Source: Escherichia phage MIZ6. From it: DNA of 64,000 nt. The position numbers were made by a program, and so were the translations under genes. Under the pieces are notes generated by a model. That model searched no databases, was not told the origin of the DNA, and was given only the letters and a program-made list of their open reading frames with translations. The stretch lies in sequence record OR192075.1. The stretch is one strand, 5' to 3'. Of this stretch, positions 4,977 to 34,337 are shown in pieces (position 1 is the first letter of the stretch; every line of letters starts with the position of its first letter).

Positions 4977-6645
4977 TCATTTCAGTGAATCGCCCACGTT
5001 TAACCATCTTGAGATGACGGCTAAAATCATCAGGGTTATGGTCACGATGGCTGATAATATACACGTTATCATCTAACTTGTCAATGATGGAATCAAGTGC
5101 TTTTACGCCTTGAACGTCCGTAGCCCCATCATAAATTTCGTCGAGTACCAACAAAGAAATATTAGTACCAGATACCTTACCAGCAACATCACGCCATGTA
5201 AAGAGCATCGCAAGATCAATACGTGCTTTTTCGCCTTGACTGAATGATGTATACGAAAACGATTCACGCCCCCGTGATTTGATTGTTTCGTTAAACTCTT
5301 CATCTAGCGTAAAGATATAATCCGCTTCCATGATATCAAGATAATATGCAATCCGATCATTGAAATATGGAATATATTTCTTGACGATAGACGCCTTAAC
5401 ACCGGAATCCTTCAACATTTCTGTTACAAATCCACGGTGATATTTTTCAAGAACTAGCTTTGATTTTTCATTAGTAATCTCTACCAGTTCGTGTTCCAGT
5501 TTAGCAAGTTCTTCGGAATTGTCAACCCTTTCTTTTTGTAATTCCTGAATTGCTTTCTGGATCTGCTTAGCACGACCTACAGATGCCGTTAAATTCGCTC
5601 TCTGTGACTCTATAGCGCGTTTAATTTCCAAGACCTTAGTTTGTGCTGTCTGGAAAGAATTGGCCTTCTCTGCGTACTCTACGCGTTTCTCGTCAATCAG
5701 AGACAGTTTATGTTCTGCTTGTGCTTTTTGTTCTCGTACAGCTTGATCATTACCCTGAATGATCGGTTGTGTGCACGTAGGACAGATCCCGCCTTTCTCA
5801 TGCATATGAATAACACGGTCAAAGTTCTGGATCTGTGCACCAATCTGTGCGATAGCCGTATTAATTTTAGCCAATGCCGCGCTAGGATCTTCCGGCATAA
5901 CAACAGCCAATAGCTCATCGGTCAAGCGCGTTTCTTCGGCTTTAAATGCTTTAGCAGATTCTACCTCTTTATCATACATATTCTGTAAACGCTGGAGATT
6001 CTCGGCACTCGCCTTGCTAGCGTCTTCTATGTACTTTTTATGAGTGTTGATTTGTTGCTGAACGTGATTAGCTTTCATTTCCTGCATTTGGATATTCTGG
6101 GTAATCTCGCGCACATACGCTTTATTCAGTTTATCCATTTCGCCTAGTGTAGCAATATCAAGCAAATCCTCGACCAGTTTACGGCGACCCGCTGCCGGAA
6201 GACTCATAAACGGAACATAACCAGCAGTGCCTAAAACAACGATCTGTTTAAAGCTGGCTAGGTTCATGCCTATGATACCTTCAAAATATTCCTGAAAGTC
6301 TTTGGTGCTTGCGCTCTCGTCGATCTTTTGACCGTCTCGATGCACTTCGAATACTTCCGGCTTTTGTCCACGTTTAATATAAAATTCTTTCCCGTCCAGT
6401 TCAAACCAGACTTCGACTAACAGTTTCTTTTTGTTGACGCTGTTAATCAATTGGCCTTTCTTGATACTACGAAACGGTTTACCGAACAACACAAAGCAAA
6501 GCGCCTCAATCATGGTCGATTTACCAGCACCGTTAACACCAGTGATTAGTGTCTTTTTGAATCCGTCTAGCTGAATCTCTACAGGTTCAGCACCCACGCT
6601 CATTATATTTTGATAGCGCAAGGTTTTAAAATTTAACTTTGCCAT
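4963..6645 (-). CDS. 46: recombination endonuclease subunit gp46 (Rad50/SbcC-like ATPase)
   Basis: Walker A GVNGAGKST, signature/D-loop region SQGEKARIDLAMLF...LVLDE; strong colinear similarity to T4 gp46 (NIMSVG...KTLITG...EKYHRG...). Start set at MAKLNF by alignment. Confidence 0.92.
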   Translation of the reverse strand: MAKLNFKTLRYQNIMSVGAEPVEIQLDGFKKTLITGVNGAGKSTMIEALCFVLFGKPFRSIKKGQLINSVNKKKLLVEVWFELDGKEFYIKRGQKPEVFEVHRDGQKIDESASTKDFQEYFEGIIGMNLASFKQIVVLGTAGYVPFMSLPAAGRRKLVEDLLDIATLGEMDKLNKAYVREITQNIQMQEMKANHVQQQINTHKKYIEDASKASAENLQRLQNMYDKEVESAKAFKAEETRLTDELLAVVMPEDPSAALAKINTAIAQIGAQIQNFDRVIHMHEKGGICPTCTQPIIQGNDQAVREQKAQAEHKLSLIDEKRVEYAEKANSFQTAQTKVLEIKRAIESQRANLTASVGRAKQIQKAIQELQKERVDNSEELAKLEHELVEITNEKSKLVLEKYHRGFVTEMLKDSGVKASIVKKYIPYFNDRIAYYLDIMEADYIFTLDEEFNETIKSRGRESFSYTSFSQGEKARIDLAMLFTWRDVAGKVSGTNISLLVLDEIYDGATDVQGVKALDSIIDKLDDNVYIISHRDHNPDDFSRHLKMVKRGRFTEMNVNI

Positions 6646-10248: not shown

Positions 10249-11718
10249 CTATTCCCCATTACCATTATACTTTCTTTGCTTAGTTATCCACACTCTAACC
10301 ATCTCTACGGATTCACCGTCAGACGGATCAAGAGTTTTTCCTTTTTTCTTCATGCGGTACTTAAATCCGTTAAATCTTGCATTCTCTTGCTCGTTAAAGT
10401 CGAACATCTTTTTAAATGATTTTCGCCCTTTACGCTCACCGCATTCTAGCGGAATCATTCGGTCTGTTATTACATTGGCATTAGGCAGAAACGTTTTTAG
10501 ATAATCCACCAACGCCCAATCAGGAACATATAGATTAACATTCTCCTTGCTCTCGTTGTCTCTCAGGTTACAACGCAAACATAATTGAAATGCTGGTTCC
10601 AGATAATCAGACACATGACGCGCTTTCAAAAACTCGTTTGTTGGGAGATCACAACTATTAGCAAGACCTTTTAAAATATCAATCTCCCATCGTTGAGGGT
10701 TAAAGCTGAACATCACAGCAACATTTTTATGATGAATGTAAGAGTTAAGACCATAAGATCCGTAAGGTATCCGCTCACCAATACCATTTGTGCACGCTTC
10801 ACGGTCCCGATTCACGGTATAAATGAAGTCATCACCACATTCATTTTTAACCATATCAACAAGACGTTCAAAGGTATTGTTTGTTTCTGACTGGTGACGC
10901 GACCATCGTTCGGAGTCCGTCATAAGGATGATGTTAACTCTATCTGTATTTTTATACTCTTTGAAATATAGTCTGGATTCTAGCGCACTCGGAACAAAAT
11001 CGCAATTTGCATAGTATCGTAGATACTTCCCACTATATGTATCAAAGAGATTTGCACATGCTATCGTAACCTTTTTAAAGTCTCCCCACGTACCGTGTTT
11101 GTTATCGTTCAAGAAAACAATTTTCGACCCATTCTTCCGGTGTCCTTCGTTATGTTTTACCATAACGTTGATTTTCTTCTCTAATAACGCCTCATAAAGC
11201 CCTCTAAGAGAAGAATCGATCATATCAGTACCATCCTTTGCACTTTCTATCTTTTCTTTGATAGCGGCCTTCTCAGAGTCTTTTAGAACTAAGTTCTGTA
11301 GGCATTCCGATTCGTCGGCGATTGGTTCGCAATGCTTCGTGATAAGTTCAAGATTAGACTTAAACGGATACTCATTAAATTCAACCAGTTGAGGAACTTC
11401 ATCAATGTAAAGAGCATATTCACCAAACATTTTTGAACGTTCCATATTAGATAACGCTGTATGTGTAATGAATATCACATCAGCACCATCTTTAACTGAT
11501 TGCATTATAGACGCTTGCACTGTCTTAAGGCTTCTTAGTCTTGTGCTATCAATCAAGACAGCACGACCGCCCATTCTTTTAAACTTATTGTAAGATTGTT
11601 CACTTAAAACACGAGATGGCGAAGCAATAACCGCTTTTTCTTTTGTCTCTAGGACGTGGGAAAGTATAGCATCAGTTTTCCCCGCCGCTGGCAATGCGAT
11701 TAATGTTTCAATCTTCAT
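10249..11718 (-). CDS. P-loop NTPase of unknown function (helicase-like N-terminal motifs, Cys-containing C-terminal half)
   Basis: 489 aa; deviant Walker A LPAAGKT near the N-terminus, ASPSRVL (motif Ia-like), hhhhDE at YIDEVPQ; C-terminal half has no recognisable domain. No T4 counterpart recognised; lies between gene 55 and nrdH. Confidence 0.55.
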   Translation of the reverse strand: MKIETLIALPAAGKTDAILSHVLETKEKAVIASPSRVLSEQSYNKFKRMGGRAVLIDSTRLRSLKTVQASIMQSVKDGADVIFITHTALSNMERSKMFGEYALYIDEVPQLVEFNEYPFKSNLELITKHCEPIADESECLQNLVLKDSEKAAIKEKIESAKDGTDMIDSSLRGLYEALLEKKINVMVKHNEGHRKNGSKIVFLNDNKHGTWGDFKKVTIACANLFDTYSGKYLRYYANCDFVPSALESRLYFKEYKNTDRVNIILMTDSERWSRHQSETNNTFERLVDMVKNECGDDFIYTVNRDREACTNGIGERIPYGSYGLNSYIHHKNVAVMFSFNPQRWEIDILKGLANSCDLPTNEFLKARHVSDYLEPAFQLCLRCNLRDNESKENVNLYVPDWALVDYLKTFLPNANVITDRMIPLECGERKGRKSFKKMFDFNEQENARFNGFKYRMKKKGKTLDPSDGESVEMVRVWITKQRKYNGNGE

Positions 11719-12174: not shown

Positions 12175-12444
12175 TCAATAATCATAAATCGCCCTCAGTT
12201 CTTTATAGCCTCCAATGTGCTCGTTGTTAATGAATATCTGGGGGTATACAAACCGGAGGCTCTTTGAGTTCAGCCTCCCCGCCAGTTCTTCAATCATATC
12301 ACGGTCGGGAATAATGTCAACCCCGACCTGCTTGAATACTGGTTTAAGTGTATACGGAATACCCAGATCATCCAGTAGCTTCATTGCACTAATACAACCA
12401 TAACAATGATAAGCCTCTTTCGGTATGCCGTATATCTCGATCAT
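12175..12444 (-). CDS. nrdH: glutaredoxin-like protein (NrdH-type)
   Basis: 89 aa; CYGC redox motif near the N-terminus and C-terminal YPQIFINNEHIGGY typical of the glutaredoxin/thioredoxin fold. Confidence 0.7.
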   Translation of the reverse strand: MIEIYGIPKEAYHCYGCISAMKLLDDLGIPYTLKPVFKQVGVDIIPDRDMIEELAGRLNSKSLRFVYPQIFINNEHIGGYKELRAIYDY

Positions 12445-12941
12445 TTCTCAGCCTTTAATCTTTCTAGTTCTTCTTCCAGTTCCTTGATCCGTTGGTCACG
12501 TTCAAAGTCACGTTGTAGCTTAGTGGCAAATACCCGCTTAAACTGATTGTAATCATCGATTTTAAACACTTCTTCTTCGCCATAGCGACGTACAGAAACT
12601 TCGTAGTTATTGAAGAATTGTTGCATCATTGCTTCGGATGATAGTTCTGCTGATACTACTTTAAAATATTGATCTTCTGTAGGCGAAAACCAATTACAAG
12701 CATAAAGATAAACCTTTTCATTGTCTGGGCACTGGTAAGCCTTACCATCGATTTCAATCACAGAAACATATTCAGGTATAGTAGATGAATCAATAGCTAA
12801 GACTTTAAACTGACGGTCCCCGATAAACTCAGAGATCACACGATTCGCATCACTGGTTGCAAAGGCTTTACGCGCTTGTTCGCTTTTCCACTGATAGGTC
12901 ATACCAACAACAAACATATTACCAACCTCGCTCTTTACCAA
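12441..12941 (-). CDS. repeat-domain family protein (single domain, coiled-coil tail)
   Basis: 166 aa; shares the GxTYxWK...F(K/T)V..(I/V)(E/D)..G...F(F/K)xV pattern with the neighbouring paralogues; C-terminal ELEEELERLKAEK. Confidence 0.5.
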   Translation of the reverse strand: MVKSEVGNMFVVGMTYQWKSEQARKAFATSDANRVISEFIGDRQFKVLAIDSSTIPEYVSVIEIDGKAYQCPDNEKVYLYACNWFSPTEDQYFKVVSAELSSEAMMQQFFNNYEVSVRRYGEEEVFKIDDYNQFKRVFATKLQRDFERDQRIKELEEELERLKAEK

Positions 12942-13743
12942 TCAAAAATTCAACTTCACGACGTTTAATGTCTTCTTGAAGGTCTTTAATCTTCTGGCGA
13001 TCTTGCATGATTTCGTCCATTTTGTCAAGTGCTGCAATAAAATCATCGAAACGTTCAAAGGTTTTACCTTCATTTGCTTCGCCAAATTTAACCATAGTCA
13101 GACCGTAACGACTACTAAACAGACGTTTCAACTGTCCAACGATCTTAGAATCAGTGGTTATAACTTCCAATTCTTCTACTTCTTGAAAGAATTTTCTATC
13201 AGAATCAATAAACCAGCTAGTTCCTTTATGGTTGCTATCTTCGGTTGCACTCATTAGAGTATGGTCTTTACCATCAATTTCAATTACATCAATTTGCCCA
13301 CATGGACGAACATTTTTAACAGTAAAAGGTCTATAATTTATTGCTCGTGCAATAACATAATTAAGGTTAGATACGTTTTCAGCATAATGGCAGAAGTCGG
13401 TCATAGCATTCGCATCTTTCCAAGTATAAGTTTTACCAACTTCCCATTTCTGGGGAACTTCTTCAACTTCACGAAAGAATTTTCTATCGAATGGACTAAA
13501 GAAATATGTTGCCGTCCAAATGTCTTTTCCTGTAGCAGTTTTCGCCGTATGATAAACACCGTCTAGCTCTATTGCATTAATCCAACCATTACCCTCGATC
13601 TCGATGATGGTAAATGGCTTGTCACCAATAGCTGCACTAATATCGCTATTAAGTGGAGAAAGAACACCTTCTCCGTTAGTAATAAACTCAGTTTTAGCGT
13701 TTACATCTTTCCAGGTGTAAGTTTTACCAATTTCCCATTTCAT
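12919..13743 (-). CDS. repeat-domain family protein with internal tandem duplication
   Basis: 274 aa; MKWEIGKTYTWKDVNAKTEF...FFREVEEV followed by KWEVGKTYTWKDANAMTDF...FFQEVEEL, i.e. two copies of the same roughly 98-aa domain. Confidence 0.5.
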   Translation of the reverse strand: MKWEIGKTYTWKDVNAKTEFITNGEGVLSPLNSDISAAIGDKPFTIIEIEGNGWINAIELDGVYHTAKTATGKDIWTATYFFSPFDRKFFREVEEVPQKWEVGKTYTWKDANAMTDFCHYAENVSNLNYVIARAINYRPFTVKNVRPCGQIDVIEIDGKDHTLMSATEDSNHKGTSWFIDSDRKFFQEVEELEVITTDSKIVGQLKRLFSSRYGLTMVKFGEANEGKTFERFDDFIAALDKMDEIMQDRQKIKDLQEDIKRREVEFLIGKERGW

Positions 13744-13755
13744 AATATATTCCCC

Positions 13756-14241
13756 TTAACCGATTTTATCAAGTTCGTTTAATGCTTTCTCTGCTTCCTG
13801 TATAGCTTGCACCCTTTCCGGCATTTTGTCAAGAAAATCTTTCAACTCTTCAAAACTGGAGATATGACGCAAGGCATTAGCACCGATAGCCGCATGTGAT
13901 TTGCATTCAAAGCGAATTTTATAATTATCCATAGCCAATTTGAGAAGATCAATTAGATCATATTCACGACCAGGCAATAAAACTTCTTTGAAGCACGCTC
14001 GGTCGCCATCGGAAAACCATATATTATCGCCAACATCGATAGAACTAATATAATCCCCTTCGTGATTATAGATTGAACGTACATTACCCCAACGGTCTAC
14101 AGTAGCGACAGTAAATGGTTTATCTAGATATGTAAACACACCATCAATATTAGGTTTTTGTTCGTAACGCCAACAATCACGCAAAATACGCTTTTCGTAC
14201 TCACCAACCAACTTATATGTCTTCCCTTCTTCCCATTTCAT
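13756..14241 (-). CDS. repeat-domain family protein
   Basis: Starts MKWEEGKTYKL (internal Met of the listed ORF); same domain pattern; C-terminal helical tail. Confidence 0.45.
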   Translation of the reverse strand: MKWEEGKTYKLVGEYEKRILRDCWRYEQKPNIDGVFTYLDKPFTVATVDRWGNVRSIYNHEGDYISSIDVGDNIWFSDGDRACFKEVLLPGREYDLIDLLKLAMDNYKIRFECKSHAAIGANALRHISSFEELKDFLDKMPERVQAIQEAEKALNELDKIG

Positions 14242-14245
14242 AATA

Positions 14246-14773
14246 TCATCTCTCATTTTTGATATGTGATTCTAATTGGATCATACGGTCGCGCGTTTGC
14301 TTATATTCTCGGATAGCACCGATCCGGCTAGGCATACCATCCAGTACGCTCTTAATCCCTTCTAGGGTAGTGATTTTAGCAATACTATTATGCAATCCCA
14401 TCTTATCGATTAACTGAATGTCGTAGGCTTCCATAAGCAGACCCAGACGTTCTAAAGTTAGGTCTTCTTCTTTTTCTTCCGATTCTGGAATCTTAGGTTC
14501 AATAGTAACTTCGGTAAAGAAACGACGCTCGCCCGACCAAAACCACACACCGGAACAGCCAATAGGGGATTCTTTTAACGTCATAGAGTCGTAACCGCTG
14601 CCGATAATAGTAATTTCTCTAACATCACCATCATCGTCAATGTCTTCTACCCTAAACGGGCGACCAGCCAACAAGTCAACAATACATCTGTTAATAGACG
14701 ACGAAAATTTAGTCAGTTCGGCTTTCGACGCTTCGCATTCAATCTTGTAAGTTTTACCAACTTCCCATTCCAT
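14246..14773 (-). CDS. repeat-domain family protein
   Basis: Starts MEWEVGKTYKI; same domain pattern, acidic linker, helical tail. Confidence 0.45.
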   Translation of the reverse strand: MEWEVGKTYKIECEASKAELTKFSSSINRCIVDLLAGRPFRVEDIDDDGDVREITIIGSGYDSMTLKESPIGCSGVWFWSGERRFFTEVTIEPKIPESEEKEEDLTLERLGLLMEAYDIQLIDKMGLHNSIAKITTLEGIKSVLDGMPSRIGAIREYKQTRDRMIQLESHIKNER

Positions 14774-16694: not shown

Positions 16695-18557
16695 TTACAT
16701 GTGCTTAACGCGGTTTACCATCTCGGAGTGTTTCCCGTGGTTGAATGGACGCAGATCAACAGATCCAAGATATCCACTAACGCGACGGATAACATTCATC
16801 TTTTCCAGATTGTCATTGCCGCAATCAGGGCAAACAAAACCAGACTCGGTCGCTCTCATTTCCTTAGTAGATCCGCATACATGACATACATCAGAAGGAG
16901 TATTAACACCGAAGTAGTGCAATTTATCCATTGCATAGTCTACTACAGTTTCAAGACCTTTCAGGTTGTTTTTCATGTCTGGGAACTCAACATAAGAGAT
17001 CATGCCCCCGGACGCCAGCCAGTGATAATCTTTCTCAAAGTCGATTTTCTCAAATGGAGTGACTTTCCGGTCTACGTCAAGGTGGAATGAGTTGGTGTAC
17101 CAGTCTTTATCGGTAGCACCCTTAACAATACCAAATTGCTCTCGGTCCAGTCGATTAAATCGATAGCAAAGGCTCTCGGCTGGCGTACCGTAAAGACTAA
17201 ACCCAAGTCCAGTTTCGTCCTTCCATTTTTCAGTATAATGACGCAAGATCTTAAGAATATGTTTACCGTATCGCTGCGCAACTTCCGAATCAAACGGATG
17301 AACACCAAACAGGACGCTCAATACCTCATGTAAACCAATATATCCAAGAGAGATACTAGCGCGACCATCTTTCAGAACTTCCAAAATTTCATCGTTTTGA
17401 TGAATACGGAAAAATGCACCTTCGGTATACAGTACAGGAGCAACATTGGCTTTAGCCCCTTTTAAAGCGTCTACGCGACTCATGAGCGCATCAAAGCAAA
17501 TAGGCATACGATTAGCTAGCTCTTGTTCGAATAGCTCAATTCTGCGCATTACAGACTCTTTACCAGCACGACGAGCGGCAATAAGGGCAATACGCGGAAG
17601 ATTCAGAGTCACAACACCTAAGTTATTACGTCCGTCTAATACTTCCTCGCCTTTCTCATTATGCCACACACCCAGGAAGCTACGACAACCCATCGGGCTA
17701 ACCGGAACACTAGATCCGGTGATACTACGGTTATTCTTTGCAGAGATATAATCAGGGTAAAGACGCTTACTAGAACATTCCAATGCAAGTTGCTTAATGT
17801 CGTAGTTCGGATCTTCCGGTTTAAGGTTTAATCCTTCTTCTAAGAACATCACCAGCTTAGGAAACACCGGAGTGATACCATCTTTACCTAAACCTTTAGT
17901 TCGAACTTTCAGGATCGCTTTCTGAATCAGTTTTTCTTCCCAGCTAGTACCCATACCAAATGTTAAAGTCACAAAAGGTGTTTGACCGTTGGTGGAGAAC
18001 AAAGTGTTGATTTCATATTCCAACGCTTGATACCCGTCTAGCGTTTCTTTTTCTGTCTTCTCTTGTGCATAGAGAGTATCAGCTTTGATTCCGTAGGTTT
18101 CGGCATCAGCAAGGTGTTTATAATATGTTTTCTCAACGTATGGAGCTAACACCTGATCGATGTTTGCAATTGTGGTCCCGCCATATTGATGACTTGCCAC
18201 CTGTGCGATAATTTGAGCGGTTACAGCACAAGCAACACCGATCGATTTAGGACTTTCGATTTGTGCGCTACCCAATTTAAAACCATTCTCTAGCATGTCT
18301 TTTAGATTAACAAGACAGCAGTTAGTAAACGGCATAGCGGGTGCATAATCCATATCATGATAATGAATATCACCGTCTACATGCGCTTTATAGATGTGCT
18401 CAGGTAACACGGTTTTAGCAATCTGTTTAGACACAGCGCCAGCAATCAGATCTCGACGTGTCGGGAATGTTCGCGCGTCTTTGTTCGCGTTCTCTTTGCT
18501 TACTTCGTTTTCTTTACCCGTTGCGATCTCTGTAATGTCTTTGATTAGTTTTTCCAT
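16695..18557 (-). CDS. nrdD: anaerobic ribonucleoside-triphosphate reductase
   Basis: 620 aa; C-terminal glycyl-radical motif RRVSGYLG and Zn-ribbon CHVCG...CPDCG; size and position as T4 nrdD. Confidence 0.92.
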   Translation of the reverse strand: MEKLIKDITEIATGKENEVSKENANKDARTFPTRRDLIAGAVSKQIAKTVLPEHIYKAHVDGDIHYHDMDYAPAMPFTNCCLVNLKDMLENGFKLGSAQIESPKSIGVACAVTAQIIAQVASHQYGGTTIANIDQVLAPYVEKTYYKHLADAETYGIKADTLYAQEKTEKETLDGYQALEYEINTLFSTNGQTPFVTLTFGMGTSWEEKLIQKAILKVRTKGLGKDGITPVFPKLVMFLEEGLNLKPEDPNYDIKQLALECSSKRLYPDYISAKNNRSITGSSVPVSPMGCRSFLGVWHNEKGEEVLDGRNNLGVVTLNLPRIALIAARRAGKESVMRRIELFEQELANRMPICFDALMSRVDALKGAKANVAPVLYTEGAFFRIHQNDEILEVLKDGRASISLGYIGLHEVLSVLFGVHPFDSEVAQRYGKHILKILRHYTEKWKDETGLGFSLYGTPAESLCYRFNRLDREQFGIVKGATDKDWYTNSFHLDVDRKVTPFEKIDFEKDYHWLASGGMISYVEFPDMKNNLKGLETVVDYAMDKLHYFGVNTPSDVCHVCGSTKEMRATESGFVCPDCGNDNLEKMNVIRRVSGYLGSVDLRPFNHGKHSEMVNRVKHM

Positions 18558-18602
18558 TGTATCACCTATGAAAAAGCGGGATTTTCTCCCGCTCGTTGAT
18601 AG

Positions 18603-19097
18603 TTATTTTACCAGTTCTGCTAATTCTTTTTCTTTAGCTTCCAGTTCAGCCTTAAGCTGTTTAATCTCTTGTCGCTTCTTATTAGCGGCTTCTTGCTTAC
18701 TATTTCGGATAACCTGATCTAGATACAACTCCCAATCCTGAATATTTTTGATAATATAACCGTCAACATTAATTGGTCGGATATTTAGTACAGCTTCCAG
18801 TTTAGTCGCAAAAACTTTAATTGCTGGGGTGAAGTATTCATATTCGTTATCTTCAAACCAATAACCTAGACTTGCATTATCAATACGAAGACGAAGTTCA
18901 AGATCAAGGTCTTTATCTTCGGTGTAAAGATCTTTCACCTGACCCAGCGAACTAACAACAACTTTAAAACGAATTTTATCTACACCACCAAACACATCAG
19001 TAAGTATACCAGCAATTGAGCTATTAGCGCAAGATTGGTCGCTGAATGCGTCAAGGTTTTCTTTAGTTACAGTATACCAAACATCTTGTACCCACAT
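18603..19097 (-). CDS. hypothetical protein with C-terminal coiled coil
   Basis: 164 aa; has its own promoter at 19128-19155; C-terminus KQLKAELEAKEKELAELVK. Confidence 0.4.
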   Translation of the reverse strand: MWVQDVWYTVTKENLDAFSDQSCANSSIAGILTDVFGGVDKIRFKVVVSSLGQVKDLYTEDKDLDLELRLRIDNASLGYWFEDNEYEYFTPAIKVFATKLEAVLNIRPINVDGYIIKNIQDWELYLDQVIRNSKQEAANKKRQEIKQLKAELEAKEKELAELVK

Positions 19098-19127
19098 AAT
19101 ATAATCCTCTCGTTGTTAAGTGGGAGT

Positions 19128-19155
19128 ATTATAGCATACTCCCTTCGCATGTCAA
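19128..19155 (-). promoter_or_regulatory. early-type sigma70 promoter with hairpin around the -10
   Basis: Minus-strand TTGACA, 16 bp, TATAAT; -10 lies within inverted repeat GGGAGTAT...ATACTCCC. Confidence 0.55.
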
Positions 19156-20330
19156 GCACTAACTTTTTTCTTTATTGCTTTCACCTTCTGGCGAATTGCT
19201 CGAATCTCTTCGATCTCTTTTTCAGTATCTTTAACAATTTCTTTGCGATTCTGAATATCTTTATCGAGATTATCATCAAGTTTAGGCAGCATGTCAATCA
19301 AGAACTTTTTAAGGTCTTTCAGGTTGCGAATAACAGTACCTTCACCCATTACCGCCACGCCTACACCATCCGGCAGATCACCAAACAGCTTAACCAGTTC
19401 AGACAGATGATCATGATCTTCTAGTGCTTCTTCTGATTCAGATGGCAGTTCAACAAAGTTATAACGTTCATCATTGCTGATCAGGTGATACCAGCAAAGC
19501 CCAAAAGATTTAGGAGTATATTCTACACCACCAACTTCAACTGCGTCAACACTTCCGAAAGAATCTACTTTAGTTACCTTAAATCCATGTTCCAGCGTTT
19601 TAATAATTTCAATAACATGACTGGATACGGTTTCAGTATTAAACCAATGAGGCAAATTATGTGGATTTGGCTTGTATCGTTCGCCTACTTTAAATCTCTG
19701 ACCACGCTCTTGCATACGGACATATTCAACTCGCGTGATTTCCGCGAAGTATTCAAATTCGCTACCGTCAAACAAGCAATTCCATTGATCACAAAAACGA
19801 TCCGCCTTGACGGTTTCACCTTTCGCGGTGATCATGGTAGCTGATCCGTGCAATTCTTCTTCAACCAAAAAGCCATATTCGACAAAATCAACAAGTTTCA
19901 TGGCTTCTTTGTGCTCTGGGTCATGCTCTCCCCAGAATCGCTTAAATTCTTGCAAACCTTCTGGTGTAAACGAATAACATTTACCTTTTTCAAAGTAAGT
20001 CGGCATTGCATCCTCTTTCTTGTTCATCGCTTCGTATGCCTCTTTTGAGATGCGTTTAAAGTATTTACGCTCATCGTGCATAATCATAGTAGCCCAATAA
20101 TAAACGATATCCTCAGCGGAATAAACTACATCTCCAGCTTCAATAGTAATAACATGACCGTTGTCATCTTTTTCTAATACTTTAAAGCCCTTTTCGACGA
20201 TTTCAGCAACCCGAATATGACCACGGCGCGAAGCATCGGTCAGAATAATTGAATAGCGAGAAAAGTCTAGAAACTCATCTTTACCACCTTCACGGAATGC
20301 ATAGTAATGACCTTCAAAGAATTTAGCCAT
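19152..20330 (-). CDS. repeat-domain family protein (about three domain copies)
   Basis: 392 aa; recurring ERKYFKRISKE / FEYFAEITRVEY / ERYNFVELPSE segments and GFKVL/GFKVT cores as in the 12441-14782 family; own promoter at 20362-20390. Confidence 0.5.
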   Translation of the reverse strand: MAKFFEGHYYAFREGGKDEFLDFSRYSIILTDASRRGHIRVAEIVEKGFKVLEKDDNGHVITIEAGDVVYSAEDIVYYWATMIMHDERKYFKRISKEAYEAMNKKEDAMPTYFEKGKCYSFTPEGLQEFKRFWGEHDPEHKEAMKLVDFVEYGFLVEEELHGSATMITAKGETVKADRFCDQWNCLFDGSEFEYFAEITRVEYVRMQERGQRFKVGERYKPNPHNLPHWFNTETVSSHVIEIIKTLEHGFKVTKVDSFGSVDAVEVGGVEYTPKSFGLCWYHLISNDERYNFVELPSESEEALEDHDHLSELVKLFGDLPDGVGVAVMGEGTVIRNLKDLKKFLIDMLPKLDDNLDKDIQNRKEIVKDTEKEIEEIRAIRQKVKAIKKKVSA

Positions 20331-20361
20331 AATATAATCCTCTAGTTGTTTAAATGGGAGT

Positions 20362-20390
20362 ATCTTACTACTCCCGTTTCATCATGTCAA
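20362..20390 (-). promoter_or_regulatory. early-type sigma70 promoter with hairpin around the -10
   Basis: Minus-strand TTGACA, 17 bp, TAAGAT inside GGGAGTAGTAAGATACTCCC. Confidence 0.5.
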
Positions 20391-20393
20391 GCG

Positions 20394-20954
20394 TTAAAGT
20401 GACTTTTGGATCTCTTTCAGTTCAGCTACTTTATCGGCGCTGAATTTAGCGTAGGTATCATGTCGAATAATTTCACTTTCAAGAAAGGTTTCCAGCCGAG
20501 ATCTATTTTCAATAAGGAACTCTTTCAGGTCTTCCGCGTTCTTGATAAAGATTTTATTGTCAGTAATGTCATCTTCAATCGCAAAGGAGATAGAGCGAAC
20601 TTTACCAAACAAGTTAATCAGATCTTCCAGCGATTCTTCTTTCTTAACTGGTTTCATTTCTTCAAACTGCTTTTTAGTGATGCGTTTAAAGTATTTGCGC
20701 TCGTTTGCAGCAATCAGAACAGATGCACCTTCATACCCATGAGTTTCTACCAGATACACACGCCCCATCGCATCAACAGTGAGAACTTTAAAGCCGTTAC
20801 AAAGCACGTCATACAAGAACTTATTATGTTGCGGACATCGTTTGATAAATTCTGCGGCTGTTTCTGCACTACGGAAAGTATAGTAACGACCTCGTTCAAA
20901 AACAGCATCATTTGAAGACTTAGCCGGATACAATTTATACGTTTTCTGTACCAT
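20394..20954 (-). CDS. repeat-domain family protein
   Basis: Starts MVQKTYKL after RBS AGAGGAT; contains NGFKVLTVD...ERKYFKRITKKQF. Confidence 0.45.
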   Translation of the reverse strand: MVQKTYKLYPAKSSNDAVFERGRYYTFRSAETAAEFIKRCPQHNKFLYDVLCNGFKVLTVDAMGRVYLVETHGYEGASVLIAANERKYFKRITKKQFEEMKPVKKEESLEDLINLFGKVRSISFAIEDDITDNKIFIKNAEDLKEFLIENRSRLETFLESEIIRHDTYAKFSADKVAELKEIQKSL

Positions 20955-20968
20955 AATATAATCCTCTA

Positions 20969-21241
20969 TCATTTCACTAATTGAACAGCACGAAACAGAA
21001 TGCGGTCACACGGAAGAAGCATAAATTCCCAACGCGGATCAAAGTCTTTAGCGGTATATGTTTTCCCATCAACCGAGATTTCACTTACATAACCAATAGG
21101 TGACACTTTAAGAACAGTAAACCCATTCTTGATGACTTCGTAGGTATCTTTCAATCCTTCGTAGTCATCCTCTAGGAAGTCTTTACGTGCTTGCTCAGAT
21201 TTAAAAACATAGGCAACACCGGATTTAAACATCTTACGCAT
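20969..21241 (-). CDS. repeat-domain family protein (short)
   Basis: Starts MRKMFKSG after GGAGAATCAACA; KSEQARKDF shared with the 12441 protein; own promoter at 21273-21301. Confidence 0.45.
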   Translation of the reverse strand: MRKMFKSGVAYVFKSEQARKDFLEDDYEGLKDTYEVIKNGFTVLKVSPIGYVSEISVDGKTYTAKDFDPRWEFMLLPCDRILFRAVQLVK

Positions 21242-21272
21242 TGTTGATTCTCCTTCTTGATTAGATGGGAGT

Positions 21273-21301
21273 ATTTTACTACTCCCATTTCTTATTGTCA
21301 A
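21273..21301 (-). promoter_or_regulatory. early-type sigma70 promoter with hairpin around the -10
   Basis: Minus-strand TTGACA, 17 bp, TAAAAT inside ATGGGAGTAGTAAAATACTCCCAT. Confidence 0.5.
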
Positions 21302-21304
21302 CTA

Positions 21305-21778
21305 CTATCTTAATCTTTGTATAAATTGTTTCTTATACTTCTTCGTGATCTCTTCTCGTGTATCAGCGTCGCAGTAATCGAAACCTTCTGCGTCCATAAT
21401 AGCAACCATCTCCGCGCGTGTCAAGCGTGAAAATCGTTTTACTTTATCAACAGCATATTGAGGATGTAAATGATTGTTGGTGTAGTCTCCTTTGATGTAA
21501 TTAACATAGTTTGTAGCCCAAACAACGAAATCAGCACCTAAAGCACCAACACCAAACCGTTTAAAGTCTCCGGTCAACGATCCTTCTAGGCGGTTGCAAC
21601 ACGAATGAAGCAATCCCCTTACGCGGCCTTGCCCTTTACCATCTAGATCGTGGTCGTGGTCAAGATGGTTTTTGCTCATATCCTCAAAAAGTGGCAATTG
21701 ACAAAGGGGGCAAATGCCCCCCTGTTTTTCGAATAGTTCTTGTTTGTACTCTTTAGCACTCTTAGCAGTCAGTAACAT
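21305..21778 (-). CDS. 49: endonuclease VII (Holliday junction resolvase, gp49)
   Basis: MLLTAKSAKEYKQELFEKQGGICPLCQ...NHLDHDHDL...RVRGLL parallels T4 endo VII including the Zn-binding cysteines; start set at MLLT with GGAGGG RBS. Confidence 0.88.
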   Translation of the reverse strand: MLLTAKSAKEYKQELFEKQGGICPLCQLPLFEDMSKNHLDHDHDLDGKGQGRVRGLLHSCCNRLEGSLTGDFKRFGVGALGADFVVWATNYVNYIKGDYTNNHLHPQYAVDKVKRFSRLTRAEMVAIMDAEGFDYCDADTREEITKKYKKQFIQRLR

Positions 21779-21802
21779 AAATTCACCCTCCAAAGAAGGT
21801 AT

Positions 21803-22084
21803 TTAACCATTAATCTTGTTTTTGACTACAAAGGATCGGAACTCATCAAAGCCACCGATATAATCACCATCATAGAAAATCTGCGGCATGGTGGCAATAA
21901 CTTCTACCCCTGCGCGATCCTGAATGTCGGCAATGATAGAATCAATCTTTACCGGACGACCGTTTTCGTCCACACCATCATTGACAGGAATATAGATGTA
22001 AGGGATCTTACGCGATTCACAAAGGCGCTTTGCATTCTGGCAATACTTACAGTTGTAACCTTCAAAACCAAAAATTTCTACCAT
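21803..22084 (-). CDS. nrdC: glutaredoxin/thioredoxin-like protein (NrdC-like)
   Basis: CKYCQNAKRL redox motif and TMPQIFYDGDYIGGFDEF parallel T4 NrdC; start set at MVEIFG with GAGG RBS. Confidence 0.75.
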   Translation of the reverse strand: MVEIFGFEGYNCKYCQNAKRLCESRKIPYIYIPVNDGVDENGRPVKIDSIIADIQDRAGVEVIATMPQIFYDGDYIGGFDEFRSFVVKNKING

Positions 22085-22092
22085 GTTGTACC

Positions 22093-22905
22093 TCAATCTA
22101 CGTTAGTTACATAAACTTCTTGTGTATCAGAAGACTTACCACCTGAACGATCTAGGCAATAGGTCTTATTCAACAGGACGCAGTTTAAATCATTCCGCTT
22201 GATAAAGTCAAGAAGATGATCATTTACCTTTCCCTTATGATGTGTGACATTACTGATACCAAACTGAAAACCACGCGCCATAATAGATTCTACCCACTGA
22301 TAGAATTTAATCTCTTCCTCGTCACTCCAGAACTTATTATATTCCGCAGAAGTGATAAGGTACGGCGGGTCCAAATAAACGAAATCACCTGGCAAGATCT
22401 CGATCTCGTCATAACGACCAGACGTAAAACTGATTCGACCGTCTTTGTTTTCTTCCTTAAAATTCAGGACACGCTCTACCGCGTTTTCGTTAAAAGTCCG
22501 GCGACCAAAATTAGCATTAAATTCGCCCTTCCGGTTATGGCGGTTAAGGTTGCTAAAACTGTGCTGAATCAACACAAACAGCGATAGCGGATCTGGATTC
22601 TCGTTATACTTCTTACGGAATGCCATGTAAGCATCTTTATCATCGCGAGACAAACCATTTTCGGCAATAATCCGCTTGATCGTAGAAACCGGATCAGGAC
22701 ACTCGTCAATGGCCTTGTAAGCATCAATTAAGCGGTGATCATAGTCATTAGCCAGAACATCCCCTTCGACGTACAGAGACACGCTCAAACCGCCACAAAA
22801 GGCATCGACAAAGCGGTTATAGTGCTTAGGGAAATATTTACTAACACCGGGCAATAACTTTTCCTTATTGCCCGTATAGGGAATTAAACCTAATGCTTTC
22901 TTCAT
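22093..22905 (-). CDS. dam: DNA adenine methyltransferase (Dam, GATC-type N6-adenine MTase)
   Basis: 270 aa; YTGNK, RFVDAFCGGLSVSL (SAM motif), DFVYLDPPYLITSAEYNKFWSDEEE; strongly colinear with T4 Dam as recalled. Confidence 0.92.
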   Translation of the reverse strand: MKKALGLIPYTGNKEKLLPGVSKYFPKHYNRFVDAFCGGLSVSLYVEGDVLANDYDHRLIDAYKAIDECPDPVSTIKRIIAENGLSRDDKDAYMAFRKKYNENPDPLSLFVLIQHSFSNLNRHNRKGEFNANFGRRTFNENAVERVLNFKEENKDGRISFTSGRYDEIEILPGDFVYLDPPYLITSAEYNKFWSDEEEIKFYQWVESIMARGFQFGISNVTHHKGKVNDHLLDFIKRNDLNCVLLNKTYCLDRSGGKSSDTQEVYVTNVD

Positions 22906-34280: not shown

Positions 34281-34308
34281 TTTAATACTCCTTTGTTTCG
34301 ATGGGGGT

Positions 34309-34337
34309 ATATTACTACCCCCGTTTTGTTGTGTCAA
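34309..34337 (-). promoter_or_regulatory. early-type sigma70 promoter with hairpin around the -10
   Basis: Minus-strand TTGACA, 17 bp, TAATAT inside GGGGGTAGTAATATACCCCC; leader CATCGAAAC. Confidence 0.5.

Follow-up and report, generated by a model that had tools for sequence, protein, structure and literature searches.

A probable array of GoF/Frd.2-type early genes, three of them headed by stem-loop promoters, between gene 49 and nrdD of the Krischvirus phage MIZ6

Introduction

What are the four small genes that lie between gene 49 (endonuclease VII) and nrdD in Escherichia phage MIZ6, and what are the hairpins that lie over the -10 boxes of promoters ahead of three of them? The genes, called p90, p186, p392 and p164 here, are transcribed in the order gene 49, p90, p186, p392, p164, nrdD, all on the minus strand, and they fall within a stretch of 64,000 nucleotides of sequence record OR192075.1 which was analysed as a whole and is referred to as the window. 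An original prediction for this DNA had proposed that a repeat-domain family has a second cluster here; the first lies between nrdH and nrdG. We think it likely that this locus, in a hyperplastic region, is an array of four early Krischvirus genes which are paralogs of the GoF/Frd.2 family of phage T4, three of them headed by promoter-early stem-loops (PeSLs). In a PeSL, as described by Arbiol et al. (2010, PMC2839356) in phages RB49 and phi1, a stem-loop is combined with a strong early promoter of sigma-70 type.

One domain family in two clusters

The motifs quoted in the original prediction (KSEQARKDF, NGFKVL and ERKYFKRI) are present in p90, p186 and p392, with FKSEQARKDF in p90, NGFKVL in p186 and ERKYFKRI in both p186 and the first domain of p392. 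BLASTP and hidden Markov model (HMM) tests were run on the 316 open reading frames (ORFs) of the window. By BLASTP, p90 matched the first-cluster ORF 12441-12941 (E 6e-6) and, over two stretches, 12919-13743 (6e-4 and 4e-3), so that the two clusters show significant similarity on formal alignment, and within the second cluster p186 matched p392 (E 2e-7). Starting from p90 alone, an HMM that was iterated over the window ORFs converged on 11 copies of a domain of about 90 amino acids in eight genes, with three copies in p392, one each in p186, p90 and p164, and five in the four genes of the first cluster (two in 12919-13743 and one in each of the other three). As iteration inflates the scores of the sequences it has included, each copy was retested by leave-one-out, and all 11 were recovered, with independent E-values from 1.4e-5 (for p164, which had first been detected at E 8.5e-4) to 8e-21; the leave-one-out HMM E for p90 was 4.9e-16. 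No further family ORF was found in the window, where the next-best ORF had E > 0.1, and the 489-aa ORF at 10249-11718 and two ORFs between nrdG and nrdD (all E > 0.1) are not family members.

The original prediction, that the nrd genes are flanked by two hot spots with about ten or more copies of the domain in all, about three of them in a protein of 392 aa, therefore holds, with 11 copies in eight genes and three HMM domains in p392, and the common membership of the two clusters is supported by BLASTP and also by PHROG profiles common to both (below). It had counted three genes in the second cluster, and these three do belong to the family, but it missed the fourth, p164.

Escherichia phages MIZ2 and MIZ3 match positions 18500-21900 of the window at 100% identity, and this locus is kept at 91-99% identity in 56 further Krischvirus records (RB49-like, Straboviridae). 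A ninth member of the family, a 211-aa protein (HMM E 6e-8 to 2e-13), is encoded outside the window at 90696-91331 on the minus strand of MIZ2 (OR167178.1), where it immediately adjoins the gene 41 replicative helicase, and no others were found in the whole MIZ2 genome, giving a genome-wide total of 12 domain copies in nine genes. Gene 41 is also the gene whose mRNA is affected by the T4 mutant GoF(D25Y), which may be coincidence.

Relationship to GoF and Frd.2 of T4

Pfam holds no model for the domain and returned only sub-threshold noise (RecT, LYR and others), while the PHROG profiles connect it to T4. Seven of the eight window proteins matched phrog_622 (5e-4 to 2e-18, with p392 at 2.4e-18 over three stretches and p164 as the exception), of which T4 GoF and T4 Frd.2 are members (5e-38 and 4e-46). 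The assignments were phrog_8944 ("goF mRNA metabolism modulator") for p392 and p186, phrog_16115 (5e-63) for p90, which cross-matched phrog_622, 5347 and 8944, and phrog_15067 for p164, which cross-matched phrog_3710 only; this last profile is also matched by p392, GoF, Frd.2 and the cluster-1 proteins. All four cluster-1 proteins matched phrog_5347 (1e-59 to 1e-91) and cross-matched phrog_622. An HMM made from the window sequences only found T4 GoF over residues 3-91 (model positions 4-93, 33.7 bits, E 8e-10) and T4 Frd.2 at E 4.7e-4, and had no detectable sequence relation to MotB.1 (E 0.6); by BLASTP, T4 Frd.2 matched the third domain of p392 at 3.9e-5. The tie of p164 to GoF/Frd.2 runs only through phrog_3710 and the window HMM. 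The records of RB49, Phi1 and ECD7 label the 392-aa gene "frd.2", and frd.2 or goF labels are given to genes here. By these sequence matches all four array genes are paralogs of the T4 GoF/Frd.2 family.

Outside this family little was found. A PDB sequence-profile search with the domain gave nothing better than E 0.24, neither Sm1/Sm2 motifs nor a match to an Hfq/LSM profile was found, and a search of Rfam with 18400-21900 gave nothing relevant. A word-indexed homolog search returned close Krischvirus relatives only. When 1.84 billion representatives were searched exhaustively with the profile, only 62 clusters came up at E < 1e-3, most of them of 140-190 aa with an N-terminal domain and a handful with two domains. 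About a dozen long Ig/FN3-like repeat proteins (bacterial; P0040, P0042) were rejected as homologs: they matched profile positions ~35-85 only, through an 'F-x-V-x-A-x-D-x-x-G-N-V' hairpin motif summed over repeats, and we judged the resemblance of their 'SFEVRAIDAAGNV'-type beta-hairpin to 'GFKVL.VD..G.V' to reflect convergence of a motif and not common ancestry.

According to Kim et al. (2025, PMC12152347), proteins of the family begin with a five-stranded "LSm-like" barrel, which a linker joins to a C-terminal domain that varies. This architecture and the family size (~120-190 aa) are fitted by p186, p164 and three cluster-1 proteins; outside it fall p90, which has no C-terminal domain, p392 with three domains and the 274-aa cluster-1 protein with two.

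Predicted fold and C-terminal module

An AlphaFold2 model of p186 from a 57-sequence alignment had a predicted local distance difference test score (pLDDT) of 85 overall and of 91-98 over residues 20-100; a single-sequence model of p392 was unusable (pLDDT 39), and the fold is therefore known for p186 only. In that model the domain consists of strand b1 (25-28), a helical hairpin (31-52) and strands b2 to b5 (56-93), and the tail of a helix (110-119), a beta-hairpin (126-137), a further helix (141-150) and a long helix (152-186). The repeated unit of about 90 aa is thus predicted to be an SH3-like ('LSm-like') five-stranded beta-barrel. Foldseek of the model against BFVD gave 54 phage hits at E <= 1e-3; almost all are uncharacterised and come from phages of the T4 type, and one carries a GoF annotation. 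The predicted bent five-stranded antiparallel sheet has FeoA/IdeR/SH3-like neighbours, as in the GoF family. All family proteins except p90 have in common a C-terminal module of about 80 aa, weaker in similarity than the domain, yet recognisable (p164 against p392, E 4e-4), which ends in the long helix and, by analogy, probably mediates dimerisation.

Hairpins over the -10 boxes of three promoters

The inverted repeat GGGAGTA(N3-10)TACTCCC was found three times in the window (21267-21286, 20356-20375 and 19122-19143) against 0.01 expected, and in all three cases it overlaps the -10 box of a TTGACA-N16/17-TAnnAT promoter. The original prediction had named two such promoters, and our scans located both of these, at 20390-20362 and 21301-21273; it had missed the third, upstream of p164, which has the perfect consensus. 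The hexamers match the consensus at 12/12, 11/12 and 10/12 positions with spacers of 16, 17 and 17 nt, and a Shine-Dalgarno (SD) sequence (GAGGA or GGAG) and an ATG follow 30-35 nt downstream of the -10 box. AT content in the 30 nt upstream of the -35 box, where PeSLs have an AT-rich tract, is 0.80 for p90, 0.60 for p392 and 0.67 for p164, against a window mean of 0.60. The stem-loops are a 9-bp stem at 21265-21288, over the -10 box, for p90, GGGAGTA-gtaaga-TACTCCC for p392 and GGGAGTAT-gctata-ATACTCCC for p164. As RNA they fold into stems of 7-9 bp with 6-nt loops at -11.9 to -13.8 kcal/mol (z -3.5 to -4.1), and none of 200 shuffles folded as well.

The hairpin promoters sit tightly against the preceding genes: the TGA stop of p392 is embedded in the -35 TTGACA ahead of p164 (19150-19155), and 3 nt separate the stop codons of gene 49 and p186 from the -35 boxes that follow them. 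Those ahead of p90 and p164 are annotated as promoters in phage GEC-3S, and the p90 one is conserved in nine krischviruses. Upstream of the family genes only sigma-70-type promoters were seen.

PeSLs as described by Arbiol et al. (PMC2839356) stand directly after the upstream stop and before an SD sequence and ATG, are concentrated upstream of ORFans in hyperplastic regions, and number about 50 per genome in that paper's list; a stem-loop overlapping the -10 box is a named common subclass of them in RB49 and phi1. By sequence and layout the three hairpin promoters of the array are PeSLs, and the window has many more with other stems. One of these, placed at 34309-34337 or 34303-34337, keeps this layout but has GGGGGTA/TACCCCC as its stem, in which G:C replaces A:T and pairing is preserved. 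In GEC-3S, ECD7 and Phi1 the p90 PeSL reads TGCTCCC, and this U-A to U-G wobble still pairs in RNA. The GGGAGTA stem occurs eight times in the whole MIZ2 genome, five of them at unrelated loci, and because of this we regard the hairpin as a generic PeSL subtype; the idea that it belongs to the gene family alone, perhaps as a target of autoregulation, was rejected.

Transcription is expected to start about 7 nt beyond the -10 box, where the 3' arm of the hairpin ends. The hairpin is thus upstream of the start, and only in RNA that reads through from the preceding gene would it form. For some other PeSLs promoter and terminator activity have been shown, and cassette shuffling and mini-circle formation have been described (PMC2839356).

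Only p186 has no hairpin promoter. It was predicted to be co-transcribed with p90, and the arrangement is consistent with this, as its start lies 14 nt past the p90 stop and the sequence holds no promoter between them. Its length had been given as 192 aa, which is right for the longest ORF (20394-20972, its ATG overlapping the p90 stop), but the ATG at 20954, which is SD-supported (GAGGA ahead) and used in the MIZ2 annotation, gives 186 aa and is the more likely start. The longest ORF of p90 is likewise longer (20969-21301) than its 90-aa product, which starts from the ATG at 21241. The segment 20955-20995, comprising the end of p90 and the 14-nt spacer (TTCAATtagTGAAAtGA...tagaggattatattATG), aligns with the -35 box, spacer and ribosome-binding site of the p392 PeSL, lacks the hairpin and -10 box, and may be a decayed PeSL.

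Probable exchange of cassettes at the stem-loops

The p90 and p392 PeSLs, 911 nt apart, make up a direct repeat of 78 nt with 72% identity, and they bracket a cassette that one relative lacks. In phage KFS-EC (NC_055757) the p90-p186 cassette is absent, and only one PeSL stands between gene 49 and p392 (junction at locus positions 2831-2905, corresponding to 20330-21305 of the window). In its 5' part (TTGACAgcatgaaatGGGAGTAGTAA) this PeSL agrees with the p90 type, as found in RB49, and in its 3' part (GATACTCCCAT.taaacaacgagaggatt...ATGgctaaa) with the p392 type, and this chimera places the crossover within the stem-loop, inside GGGAGTAGTAA; by its sequence the junction carries the signature of PeSL-PeSL exchange. 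In phage Brandy the p392 PeSL (window 20344-20390) carries the promoter and hairpin sequence of the p90 PeSL (acatgaaatGGGAGTAGTAAAATACTCCCATct), which indicates, from the aligned sequences, gene conversion between the two. A second allele of p164 in JK32 and Makalu_001 (dN, nonsynonymous divergence, 0.27-0.29; dS, synonymous divergence, 0.67-0.81), between flanking genes that are more than 90% identical, looks like cassette replacement between PeSL and terminator. The case for PeSLs as recombination sites here is thus a comparative one.

Gene map

Features of the array and of the first cluster are given in Table 1.

Table 1. Positions of the array, its promoters and terminator, the flanking genes and the first cluster (window coordinates).
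Feature	Position	Strand	Description
PeSL upstream of p90	21255..21301	-	-35 TTGACA 21301-21296; 17-nt spacer; -10 TAAAAT 21278-21273
PeSL upstream of p392	20344..20390	-	-35 20390-20385; spacer 17; -10 TAAGAT 20367-20362
PeSL upstream of p164	19110..19155	-	perfect TTGACA-N16-TATAAT, 19155-19128
gene 49 (endonuclease VII)	21305-21793	-	upstream end of array
p90	20969..21241	-	single GoF/Frd.2-type N-terminal domain, without C-terminal module; RB49 ORF060c ortholog
p186	20394..20954	-	GoF/Frd.2-type domain (aa ~20-100) and C-terminal helix / beta-hairpin / helix / long-helix module
p392	19152..20330	-	three tandem GoF/Frd.2-type domains and C-terminal module like that of p186
p392 domain 1	20049-20321	-	aa 4-94; HMM
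p392 domain 2	19737-19994	-	aa 113-198; HMM
p392 domain 3	19449-19694	-	aa 213-294; HMM
p392 C-terminal module	~19155-19433	-	
p164	18603..19097	-	divergent family member; domain aa 1-95 and C-terminal helical tail
intrinsic terminator	18571..18592	-	GCGGGA-gaaaa-TCCCGC then TTTTT; closes array, directly ahead of nrdD ribosome-binding site
nrdD	16695-18557	-	downstream end of array
first cluster, nrdH-nrdG	12441..14773	-	four genes; no PeSLs between them (promoter scan)
cluster-1 gene	12441-12917	-	
cluster-1 gene	12919-13743	-	two domains, 274 aa
cluster-1 gene	13756-14241	-	
cluster-1 gene	14246-14773	-	

In T4, gene 49 abuts nrdD, and the whole four-gene array is therefore an insertion relative to T4. 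The terminator that closes it is also annotated in GEC-3S and Makalu_001. It ends 13 nt ahead of the nrdD start with no promoter between (18557-18602), so nrdD must use read-through or a promoter inside p164. Near the array, GEC-3S has a gene for an HNH homing endonuclease between nrdC and dam (5086-5841 of that phage; junction near 22093-22096 of the window); in the window there is no HNH gene at this place, and nrdC and dam overlap by 4 nt.

History of the family

Pairwise identity among the domain copies is 14-49%. The closest pairs are formed by the two domains in the 274-aa protein (49%) and by p392 domain 1 and p186 (38%), and copies from one cluster mostly resemble each other more than they do copies from the other. 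The low identities together with this within-cluster bias point to an old expansion of the family, through tandem duplication of genes and also of domains inside a gene. Local conversion is suggested by a 50-nt DNA repeat of 78% identity in the ERKYFKRI(S/T)K region (20023-20072 in p392 domain 1 against 20653-20702 in p186), a patch far above the rest of the p392/p186 similarity. A second DNA patch, of 86%, joins 18831-18858 (p164) and 19746-19773 (p392 domain 2).

The array genes are maintained under purifying selection: dN/dS against nine other krischviruses is 0.03-0.40 (p90 0.03-0.18, p392 0.13-0.40), and p392 is 392 aa long in all ten krischviruses compared.

GoF G84, which is mutated in the rho-suppressor G84R, is matched in the alignment by K or R within a (D/E)R(K/R)(Y/F)F motif in five of the 11 copies, and the position ahead of it is R in eight of the 11 window domains; the G84R correspondence is an inference from alignment and not a functional result. 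GoF D25 lies in a loop that varies and aligns poorly, and no conclusion was drawn from it.

Proposed mode of action and alternative explanations

T4 can dispense with the genes of the family; GoF is plentiful at early times of infection, and only the mutant GoF(D25Y) stabilises the leader mRNA of gene 41 (PMC12152347). In Krischvirus the family occupies two insertion points beside conserved nrd genes, with the ninth gene beside gene 41. From the literature on PeSLs, early expression would come from their sigma-70 consensus promoters, and the hairpin in read-through RNA may act as an attenuator or 3'-end structure; the near-identical PeSLs would also be short patches of DNA homology for the loss, gain, conversion or replacement of cassettes. 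By analogy with GoF(D25Y) the proteins may have a non-essential post-transcriptional or host-takeover role, in which the loops of the barrel would bind RNA or a host protein, the terminal helix would dimerise, and the two-domain and three-domain proteins would be multivalent.

A bolder extension, which we put forward tentatively and think rather unlikely, is that Krischvirus has made of the single-copy GoF/Frd.2 barrel of T4 a toolkit of at least nine genes and 12 domains in which each paralog targets a different host RNA or protein and PeSL cassettes swap paralogs fast. It would suit a conserved fold core with diverging surfaces, pI (isoelectric point) from 4.3 to 9.3, a valency of one, two or three domains and a usual dimerising helical tail, and its targets might be, for example, components of mRNA decay, of Rho-dependent termination or of anti-phage defence. 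On this view the basic (D/E)R(K/R)(Y/F)F motif, by its alignment with the G84R site, could mean that some paralogs, p186 especially, are already RNA-stabilising in the way that T4 GoF is when mutated.

Several observations weigh against the reading of the locus as a PeSL-headed array of post-transcriptional regulators, or limit it. The three stems are followed by CUAAUC, UUUAAAC and CUUAAC and not by a U-run, and having no U-tract on the transcribed strand they were rejected as canonical intrinsic terminators; a terminator-scan match at the hairpin sites was obtained only on the non-coding plus strand, and the only true terminator of the array is the one ahead of nrdD. Promoter use, attenuation and the co-transcription of p186 are all things that we infer from sequence. 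The near-invariant positions of the domain (Y, F, V, G, F) are core residues, and with only the hydrophobic core conserved, no common active or binding site is visible. Most of the paralogs are acidic (pI 4.3-5.7), which argues against general RNA binding, with the p186 domain basic (pI 9.3) and p90 near neutral. The KFS-EC event may have been either a deletion or an insertion.

The acidity of most copies, and the fact that wild-type GoF has no RNA phenotype, would also suit a different role, in which the barrels are not RNA-binding LSm-like modules and instead serve as protein-protein adaptors on the host transcription machinery (RNA polymerase or Rho). There are parallels in the Tudor-like domains of CarD and of the C-terminus of PcrA/UvrD, and tandem copies with a dimerising tail would make such adaptors multivalent; we hold this to be possible, at perhaps one chance in several.

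Doubtful to a greater degree is a second alternative, which concerns the hairpins and not the proteins: that the palindromes are DNA operators for a dimeric repressor, of phage or host, controlling a regulon of early promoters, and that the ability to form hairpins is irrelevant. A palindrome over a -10 box is indeed a classic operator layout, and besides recurring through the MIZ2 genome the GGGAGTA stem has four copies there with an identical 20-mer, GGGAGTAGTAAGATACTCCC; duplication and conversion, however, explain the sequence common to the copies equally well. PeSL stems vary widely (GGGGAG/CTCCCC, GGGTGTAT/ATACACCC, GGGGATC/GATCCCC, GCGGTTAT/ATGACCGC), as does their position relative to the -35 and -10 boxes, and both the A:T to G:C difference between related PeSLs and the natural U-A to U-G variant of GEC-3S, ECD7 and Phi1 preserve pairing, the latter in RNA. 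For one PeSL stem-loop Arbiol et al. (PMC2839356) observed terminator activity in vivo.

That the family is only a chance or compositional similarity of short AT-rich ORFs and the hairpins chance inverted repeats, a view to which the low pairwise identities, the lack of a Pfam family and the capture of unrelated Ig-like repeat proteins by the profile through an FxVxAxDxxGN-like motif might lend colour, is effectively refuted by the leave-one-out E-values (1e-5 to 1e-21, well separated from that of the next ORF), the independent PHROG profiles that connect both clusters and T4 GoF/Frd.2, the confident common fold that the alignment yields, the purifying selection, and hairpins in such excess over expectation with fold z-scores near -4.

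Comparison with known systems

The Krischvirus proteins and T4 GoF/Frd.2 have in common a homologous N-terminal five-stranded barrel of about 90 aa, the plan of N-terminal domain, linker and variable C-terminal part, the standing of early-region accessory genes of T4-type phages, and the FeoA, IdeR and SH3-like structural neighbours. They differ in that T4 has three dispersed single-domain genes, whereas Krischvirus has at least nine genes and at least 12 copies, in arrays, with two- and three-domain proteins and the bare-domain p90, and in that the Krischvirus C-terminal module is of a helix / beta-hairpin / long-helix type unlike the C-terminal domain of GoF. Kim et al. (PMC12152347) make no mention of RB49-like phages, tandem domains or paralog arrays.

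Other five-stranded folds are more distant. The FeoA and DtxR-IdeR C-terminal SH3-like domains (CATH 2.30.30.90) have 12-16% identity and no sequence-level relation to the domain; the metal-binding histidine pattern is absent here, and these are phage early genes and not genes of iron transport. The likeness to Hfq/Sm proteins lies in small, bent five-stranded antiparallel beta-sheets and in the stabilisation of an mRNA by the T4 relative GoF(D25Y).

The stem-loop promoters resemble the PeSLs of RB49 and phi1 (PMC2839356; Comeau et al. 2014, PMC4122927), which are of the same genus, in their sigma-70 consensus, in the stem-loop over the -10 box, in their position after a stop codon in a hyperplastic region and in cassette indels with chimeric PeSLs; they differ in having GGGAGTA/TACTCCC stems where the G4/C4 type is commoner, and in nothing essential.

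Both components of the locus have thus been described already, the GoF/Frd.2 family in 2025 and PeSLs in 2010 in the same phage group, and the locus is no new kind of element. What is new is how far the family has expanded in Krischvirus, its tandem-domain proteins, the common C-terminal module and the natural PeSL-PeSL event. Eight "hypothetical" early genes of a genus of therapeutic phages are assigned to one experimentally approached family, and a GoF-type family can, on this evidence, be multivalent and heavily expanded. The basic p186 domain, the paralogs with K/R at the G84R position and the triple-tandem protein are natural variants for the study of binding by the GoF barrel, and the cassette loss or gain in KFS-EC and the conversion in Brandy support the modular-shuffling model proposed for these phages in 2010.

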